A stretch of 64,000 nucleotides of DNA from positions 4,949,068-5,013,067 of the forward strand of contig JAHRHZ010000075.1 in the NCBI GenBank assembly GCA_024137785.1. Direction: 5' to 3'. Source of the stretch: Ginglymostoma cirratum. Its lineage: Eukaryota. The position numbers were made by a program, and so were the translations under genes. Below, piece by piece: positions 26,791-27,439 of the stretch; position 1 is the stretch's first letter; the number at the start of each line of letters is the position of its first letter. The notes under the pieces are model-generated. The model did no database searches. It saw nothing but the letters and a program-made list of their open reading frames with translations, and was not told the DNA's origin.

Positions 26791-27051
26791 ATCTTTAAAG
26801 AATGCACTGCATGGTAGAACTAAGGGTAAGGAAATACATATTAGGATTCCAGAGTTGAATTCAAATGCTAAACATTATTATTATATACTTCAACATTACA
26901 AGCAAAAACAATAAAGACTGAATATGTATACTGAAAATGTAAAGTAATGATTTTAAACCATAAATATATAATTCTAAACAAAATAAACAACAGACTCTAA
27001 TTTTCAGGATTAACTTGAGATAAAAGAACAAACAAATTATAATTAAACTCT

Positions 27052-27301
27052 CAATAAAAATCGAAAGAACTGTGGATGCTTTTATTCAGAAATAAAACCA
27101 GAAGTTGCTGGACAAGTTGAACAGGTCTAGTAGCATCTGTGAGGAAAAAAATCAAGAGTTAATGTTTCAGGTCCAGTGACCCTTCCTCAGAGCCTGTTCT
27201 CTGAGGAAGGGTCAGCGGACCCGAGACGTTAACTCTGATTTTTTTTCTTCACAGCTGCTGCTAGGCCTGCTGACCTTTTCCAGCAATTTCTGTTTTTATT
27301 C
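27052..27301. repeat. Head-to-head palindrome of two Penelope termini, each with a hammerhead core
   Basis: Arms meet at loop cctgtt 27193-27198; CTGAGGA on minus 27184-27190 and plus 27201-27207; TSD ataattaaac 27039-27048 / 27302-27311. Confidence 0.9.
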
Positions 27302-27439
27302 ATAATTAAACACTCTACAGACTGAACATTAAATAGCTAATGTAGTCAAGATTGAACCTCGCTGGACATCAGTGAGACCGTGGGTCACTAAATCTCATTA
27401 AAACTTTGTTTCTTCTTCAAGGGATTCCAATGGTTTGTT

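Follow-up and report, generated by a model that had tools for sequence, protein, structure and literature searches.

The palindrome at 27053-27301 of the window, the 64-kb stretch of Ginglymostoma cirratum DNA analysed here, is formed of two inverted termini of a Penelope-like element (PLE) enclosed by a target-site duplication (TSD). Its parts, and the long element of the same family to which it is compared, are as follows:

27039..27052, plus strand: left TSD, 14 bp, AT-rich; matches the right copy at 13 of 14 positions (p about 0.002)
27053..27192, minus strand: left arm, family-1 (Neptune-like) PLE 3′ terminus that starts 2 nt 5′ of C3 of the hammerhead and includes the whole tail; 83% identity to the long element over its 3′ end, 34611-34744
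27053..27088, minus strand: PLE tail, 36 nt, present in the left arm and missing from the right arm; aligns to the tails of 34611-34644 and of the copy at 25152
27161..27190, minus strand: minimal type I hammerhead motif, damaged by C11.1>U, G16.2>A and a broken helix I
27193..27198, no strand: loop or junction, 6 nt; five of the six nucleotides (27194-27198) match the sequence upstream of the 34743 core, given a 2-nt duplication
27199..27301, plus strand: right arm, family-1 PLE 3′ terminus without a tail; 86% identity to the terminus of the long element, and 84 of 103 aligned positions match the left arm
27201..27230, plus strand: minimal type I hammerhead motif, damaged by GAAA>GAGA and a broken helix I
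27302..27315, plus strand: right TSD, 14 bp; 13 of 14 positions identical to the left copy
34597..38622, minus strand: long family-1 PLE, built like the palindrome

The inverted arms, 27081-27192 and 27199-27310, flank a 6-nt loop at 27193-27198 (CCTGTT). The CTGAGGA cores start at 27190 on the minus strand and at 27201 on the plus strand, and are separated by 10 nt. The palindrome, its head-to-head termini, the loop, and the core spacing described in an earlier note on this DNA are all present, and the segment 27039-27315 is predicted to fold into a hairpin of -143.3 kcal/mol, compared with -62.0 ± 4.9 kcal/mol for shuffled sequences (z -16.8; 0 of 200 shuffles as good). The flanking direct repeat, given as 10 bp in the note, is present but extends over 14 bp (27039-27052 and 27302-27315), and the element proper is therefore the 249 bp of 27053-27301. 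The score of the TSD was equalled by 6 of 3000 random position pairs (0.2%) and by 3 of 3000 AT-matched pairs. Both arms lie within a single 14-bp TSD, and the palindrome is one insertion, as had been claimed. The arms are of unequal length: the left one has 140 nt, including the 36-nt tail at 27053-27088, and the tail-less right one has 103 nt. An assembly artefact is ruled out by the 18% divergence of the arms, the TSD, and the asymmetry of the tail. The 3′ end of a LINE-like element with a short tandem tail, which may be CR1/L2-like, is positioned on the minus strand from 27447 to about 28300, starting 130 nt to the right of the palindrome.

Each arm is composed of a hammerhead and the segment downstream of it. 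BLAST searches with both arms identified related termini across the 64-kb window, 17 of which were aligned, the two arms included. Among the closest is the minus-strand terminus at 34743, with which a 2.4-kb body at 34611-37041 ends on its 3′ side. A fragment of this body retrieved 78 proteins, of which ten were scanned and two had a Pfam match. Among the retrieved relatives, P0052 matches RVT_1 (E 1.9e-7) and P0035 matches GIY-YIG (E 4.4e-4, which misses the Pfam curated cut-off). Both align along the broken frames of 34611-37041, in the order RT, cysteine-rich linker (35287-35370), and GIY-YIG. The domain identity of the long element was thus obtained from retrieved relatives and not from its own ORFs; a direct Pfam scan of ten broken ORFs from two PLE bodies gave no RT or GIY-YIG match, and one weak irrelevant match. 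The predicted domain order is the architecture of EN+ Penelope-like elements. A cysteine-rich linker between RT and EN is reported to point to the Neptune clade (PMC8557442, in the part available), and Neptune is the most likely assignment of the family, judged from linker motif and domain order rather than from a tree. The proposal that the fold-back is retro-derived holds, the arms being termini of an element with RT and GIY-YIG.

The identity between the two arms is 82%, compared with 0.80-0.86 between the arms and other family-1 copies. Three substitutions and a longer T-run are common to both arms and absent from eight other aligned copies. However, an unrelated pair, the left arm and the 34743 copy, likewise shares four departures from the majority. 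Because of this, and because each arm resembles other copies as closely as it resembles its partner, the shared variants are consistent with one template but only suggestive of it.

The long family-1 element has a main copy at 34611-37041 on the minus strand, with a broken RT, a CxxxxC/CxxC-type linker, GIY-YIG, and a tail of ~34 nt. At the head-to-head joint 37041/37042 the main copy meets a tail-less inverted arm (37042-37164 and 38507-38608), which ends at the same motif as the right arm of the palindrome. An exact 14-bp TSD (34597-34610 and 38609-38622) surrounds the whole element, which is split by a nested family-2 fold-back at 37165-38490, 21 nt upstream of the inverted hammerhead. The RT/EN-encoding relative 34611-38608 matches the palindrome in TSD length, one-sided tail, and tail-less end point.

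Three more hammerhead-tipped fold-backs, from other PLE families, are positioned at 10420-12466, 37165-38490, and 38645-39560, and the palindrome is the shortest of the five. Since fold-backs recur in the window, they are routine products here. A one-sided tail of ~31-36 nt is present in all four readable fold-backs, namely the palindrome, 34611-38608, 37165-38490, and 38645-39560, with 31-34 nt in the last two. The family-2 fold-back 37165-38490, inserted into the terminus of another PLE, has arms about 87-91% identical, a 17-bp TSD (16/17), and a 400-N assembly gap as its centre. The fold-back 38645-39560 is a complete family-2-like unit of ~900 bp with a 14-nt loop, about 20 nt from the end of the preceding element; its central segment is common to both arms and unmatched in the other family-2 copies compared. 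The 2-kb fold-back 10420-12466 belongs to a third PLE family and contains GIY-YIG remnants. A TSD search found none for 38645-39560 and 10420-12466 (both with approximate boundaries), for 25017-26142, or for the 25152 arm alone.

Other PLE remnants in the window have diverse arrangements. A young tailed family-1 terminus at 25017-25156 on the minus strand meets, head-to-head, an RT body that belongs to another subfamily (69% identical to the family-1 body). The junction of this 25017-26142 structure sits 5 nt upstream of the terminus core, and the structure arose either as a chimera inserted from two RNAs or by secondary insertion. At 52964-53338 another inverted terminus is joined head-to-head, some 10-14 nt upstream of its core, to a fragment of RT. 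The best-preserved PLE ORF remnant in the window, 47255-48955, belongs to family 2, extends from RT to GIY-YIG (tblastn E 1e-110), and ends with a tailed hammerhead terminus. The remnant 57493-58284 has an internal inversion (57493-57650 on the minus strand, 57699-58019 on the plus strand) that resembles a classical twin-priming 5′ inversion. A further inverted repeat pair, of 86 nt and 86% identity, lies at 44746-45443 with its copies 526 nt apart.

PLE insertions have been described as carrying an inverted 5′-truncated copy and a tail of 30-40 bp that is frequently confined to one end (PMC8557442, available sections), as well as inverted pLTRs, 8-10 bp TSDs, a 31-bp tail, and palindromic head-to-head junctions (PMC3846280, likewise in part). 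The palindrome has homology to PLE termini, an inverted 5′-truncated copy in head-to-head arrangement, a tail in the 30-40 bp range at one end, a TSD in an AT-rich target, and minimal type I hammerhead motifs, and in these it resembles EN+ PLEs, most likely of the Neptune clade. The likeness includes the parent element, with RT and, at its C-terminus, GIY-YIG (available parts of PMC8557442, PMC3846280, and PMC11167929). Unlike in the usual EN+ PLE insertions, both arms are cut at almost one and the same point, the 5′ edge of the hammerhead, no ORF sequence is left, and the product is a 249-bp near-symmetric hairpin. At 14 bp, the TSD exceeds the 8-10 bp given for Adineta vaga. The palindrome is an unusually short, decayed case of the published head-to-head insertion pattern, and mostly ordinary. 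It is probably an insertion of a Neptune-like PLE that was dead on arrival and extremely 5′-truncated, with the head-to-head (inverted pLTR) arrangement usual for these elements.

In AT-rich DNA, both strands are cut and then extended by a purified PLE protein; it has two RT starts one tail-length apart, is predicted to form a dimer, and does not need hammerhead cleavage, and the role of the hammerhead in PLEs is described as unresolved (available text of PMC11167929). In the most likely mechanism, by analogy with these properties, the RT/GIY-YIG protein of the element would have nicked both strands of the AT-rich site 14 nt apart, and each nick would have primed one cDNA. The outer RT start would have produced the arm with the 36-nt tail, and the inner start the tail-less arm. 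Both cDNAs may have grown to about 100-140 nt and halted there, at the hammerhead's 5′ edge. Their head-to-head joining followed by gap filling would leave the 14-bp TSD, and later neutral decay could account for the changes of about 9% in each arm. Similar T-rich motifs with ATT/GTT are present at the tailed (27053-27060) and tail-less (27293-27301) ends of the family-1 palindrome. The family-2 fold-back has a similar motif, TTATCTC, at its tailed and tail-less ends (37165-37205 and 38483-38490). A repeated motif about 35 nt apart suggests how the two RT start sites might be set.

The loop is probably mostly derived from the element. Homology of the right arm to the 34743 copy extends to about position -5 upstream of the core. 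The tail is present only on the left, and about 5 nt of upstream sequence only on the right, and two separately templated cDNAs would therefore fit better than a cDNA that copied itself. This reading of the junction depends on five nucleotides and on the assumption that 2 nt were duplicated. Self-priming on an antisense template has been proposed for PLEs (PMC3846280, available part), and self-priming on antisense RNA is a possible alternative origin of the palindrome.

The hammerheads were assigned by motif match to the published description of the minimal type, not by a covariance model, and a scan of the whole 64-kb window at Rfam gathering thresholds gave 0 matches. The change of GAAA to GAGA in the plus core had been seen correctly in the earlier note. 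The minus core, called intact there, has kept CUGAGGA, GAAA, and the U-H site, but its G10.1-C11.1 and C15.2-G16.2 pairs and helix I are altered. Two CpG-type changes convert the conserved G10.1-C11.1 pair to G-U and abolish the palindromic C15.2-G16.2 (GAAACATT), and U2.2>C breaks helix I in both arms. Neither arm has the full minimal consensus of CUGANGA, a bulged nucleotide, G10.1-C11.1, GAAA, palindromic 15.2-16.2, UH, and a helix I of 4-5 bp. At the level of the family the consensus is kept: among nine copies of the family-1 hammerhead, helix II is 93% paired and helix I 67%, with no compensatory change and no covariation in excess of shuffles. In the hammerhead of the third family (family 3, within 10420-12466), a palindromic GC replaces CG at 15.2-16.2, a compensatory-type change between families.

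Either strand of the palindrome contains one sense hammerhead copy, with the antisense arm first. PLE termini are reported to carry minimal hammerheads that are weakly active, and only as dimers (PMC4209133, available text). As both cores are damaged and the minimal type needs a direct-repeat dimer, the palindrome, judged from its nucleotide changes, is probably not a working ribozyme. The suggestion that a transcript would sequester the ribozyme stands as far as the long hairpin is concerned, and forcing the hammerhead fold would cost about 44 kcal/mol on the plus strand and 40 kcal/mol on the minus strand. However, sequestration is moot, because both cores are mutated and a hammerhead of the minimal type depends on another copy in the same orientation (PMC4209133, as available). 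A pyrimidine tract with (C)AG precedes the hammerhead in family 2 (38350-38372) and, less clearly, in family 1 (34745-34760). Such a tract may represent a splice acceptor; in the Penelope of D. virilis, an intron end maps to helix I (available portion of PMC4209133).

The decay of the arms looks neutral. The 19 differences between them comprise eight transversion mismatches, six G-U, and five A-C, as read on the plus strand, with no strand-specific G-U bias, and the helices of the hairpin are at most 16 bp long. Neutral simulation gave a minimum free energy of -142.9 ± 15.1, compared with the actual -141.1. In 300 neutral runs, the longest identical run was at least 16 in 61%, and a strand asymmetry as large occurred in 9%. 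The 16 pairs closest to the loop are all identical, with p about 0.04 at that fixed position, and the stretch is conserved in other copies too. Selection for RNA pairing was rejected by the mismatch classes and by the simulation of energy, run length, and asymmetry.

An arm ends within about 15 nt upstream of hammerhead C3 in three of the seven definable head-to-head junctions, which are those of the palindrome, 25156/25157, about 53074, 37041/37042, the gapped centre of 37165-38490, 39107-39122, and 11288-11590; the internal inversion 57650-57699 is of a different type and was left out of the count. The near-core break points are those of both arms of the palindrome, of 25156/25157 at about -5, and of about 53074 at about -10 to -14, or as far as -24 in a lenient alignment. 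For two of the six junctions besides the palindrome, a 10-nt window and uniform breaks give p 0.015 over 300 nt and 0.056 over 150 nt; a hand calculation with the 15-nt window that is really needed gives about 0.03, in a test chosen post hoc. A truncation hotspot just upstream of the hammerhead core is possible. Several older solo termini likewise start near the core, and the upstream region may just be subfamily-specific. A bolder and unlikely reading makes the hammerhead 5′ edge a hard RT stop or template end, which would generate 250-bp palindromes recurrently, some of them propagated as non-autonomous "retro-MITE" hairpins. If it were true, retro-MITE hairpins would be filed as DNA MITEs and would seed double-stranded RNA directed at the element they came from. 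A comparison of loops between loci would in that case separate two-nick priming from self-priming, the point at issue in PLE integration.

That the palindrome itself is such a retro-MITE, copied whole by PLE proteins in trans and one of many copies with an identical junction, is unlikely. The private variants common to both arms, junction included, would agree with copying as a unit, as would the reported mobilisation of unrelated sequence in trans by PLE termini (PMC3846280, accessible part) and the retention of the tail region implicated in recognition (accessible part of PMC11167929). However, the junction of the whole unit occurs once in 64 kb, compared with 17 related termini, the one-sided tail marks a freshly formed fold-back, and a near-perfect hairpin RNA would be a poor RT template.

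The palindrome could also have originated as a longer fold-back, similar to 34611-38608, that lost its middle through a later hairpin-stimulated deletion. Long fold-backs are common in the window, and long palindromes are prone to deletion. Nevertheless, this origin is very unlikely: the stops of both arms lie within some 5-7 nt of one shared position, and the inverted arms at 25156/25157 and about 53074 stop at the same place beside RT bodies that were not deleted. The shared stop beside undeleted bodies suggests that the break dates from the insertion.

Still less probable is a domesticated hairpin RNA, serving as a source of endo-siRNA, an ADAR substrate, or a ribozyme switch. The predicted fold is very stable, and PLE-derived small RNAs have been reported in rotifers and flies (available text of PMC3846280), but the 19 arm differences, an energy and asymmetry within the neutral simulation, and the mutation of both hammerhead cores speak against a retained function. 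A host transcript or gene was not found among 50 scanned of the 410 candidate unmasked ORFs in the window (0 Pfam matches). The Dicer or ADAR processing proposed in the note could befall any hairpin of this sort, but it finds no support in the 50 ORFs scanned, the helices of at most 16 bp, or the mismatches (six G-U against five A-C). The least probable origins, a transposase-mobilised DNA MITE or a pair of independent abutting insertions, are largely refuted, since the short, non-coding unit with inverted repeats and a TSD has termini that are not exact inverted ends (the 36-nt tail is one-sided) and arms from an RT/GIY-YIG element, and one 14-bp TSD encloses both arms.

The truncated head-to-head PLE insertion shares features with two classes of non-coding elements. 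With MITEs, it has in common the short length, the absence of coding sequence, the inverted repeats, the TSD, and the potential to form a hairpin. Unlike MITEs, which have symmetric terminal inverted repeats from a DNA transposon, it has arms derived from a retroelement and asymmetric ends (definitions of PLEs and MITEs in the available part of PMC8969392). No related transposase element was found in the 64-kb window. The description of the palindrome as MITE-like fails beyond visual likeness, as the asymmetric tail, the 14-bp TSD, and the PLE termini are the standard signature of a Penelope insertion. Like the non-LTR retrozymes of Cervera and de la Pena, the palindrome is non-coding, derived from a PLE terminus, and contains the type I hammerhead motif. 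Tandem retrozymes are reported to derive from PLE termini (bioRxiv 10.64898/2026.07.22.740005, available part). However, retrozymes are direct tandem repeats with at least two complete hammerheads on one strand, whereas the palindrome is inverted, with one damaged hammerhead per strand.

A literature search found no publication centred on short palindromic derivatives of PLEs, none on the hammerhead as a hotspot of truncation, and none on the PLE termini of sharks; this is weak evidence of absence, as most subscription papers, Repbase/Dfam entries, and supplements were outside its scope. A palindromic vertebrate Penelope repeat found no support in the literature covered, and the available part of PMC5753468 contains nothing relevant.

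The palindrome provides a warning for annotation, because PLE fold-backs can mimic MITEs, from which the one-sided tail and the long TSD distinguish them. Minimal insertions of this kind, in which one arm carries the tail and the other has additional upstream bases, could be used to test two-nick priming against the self-priming proposed in the available text of PMC3846280. They could also show whether the hammerhead marks the point of truncation.
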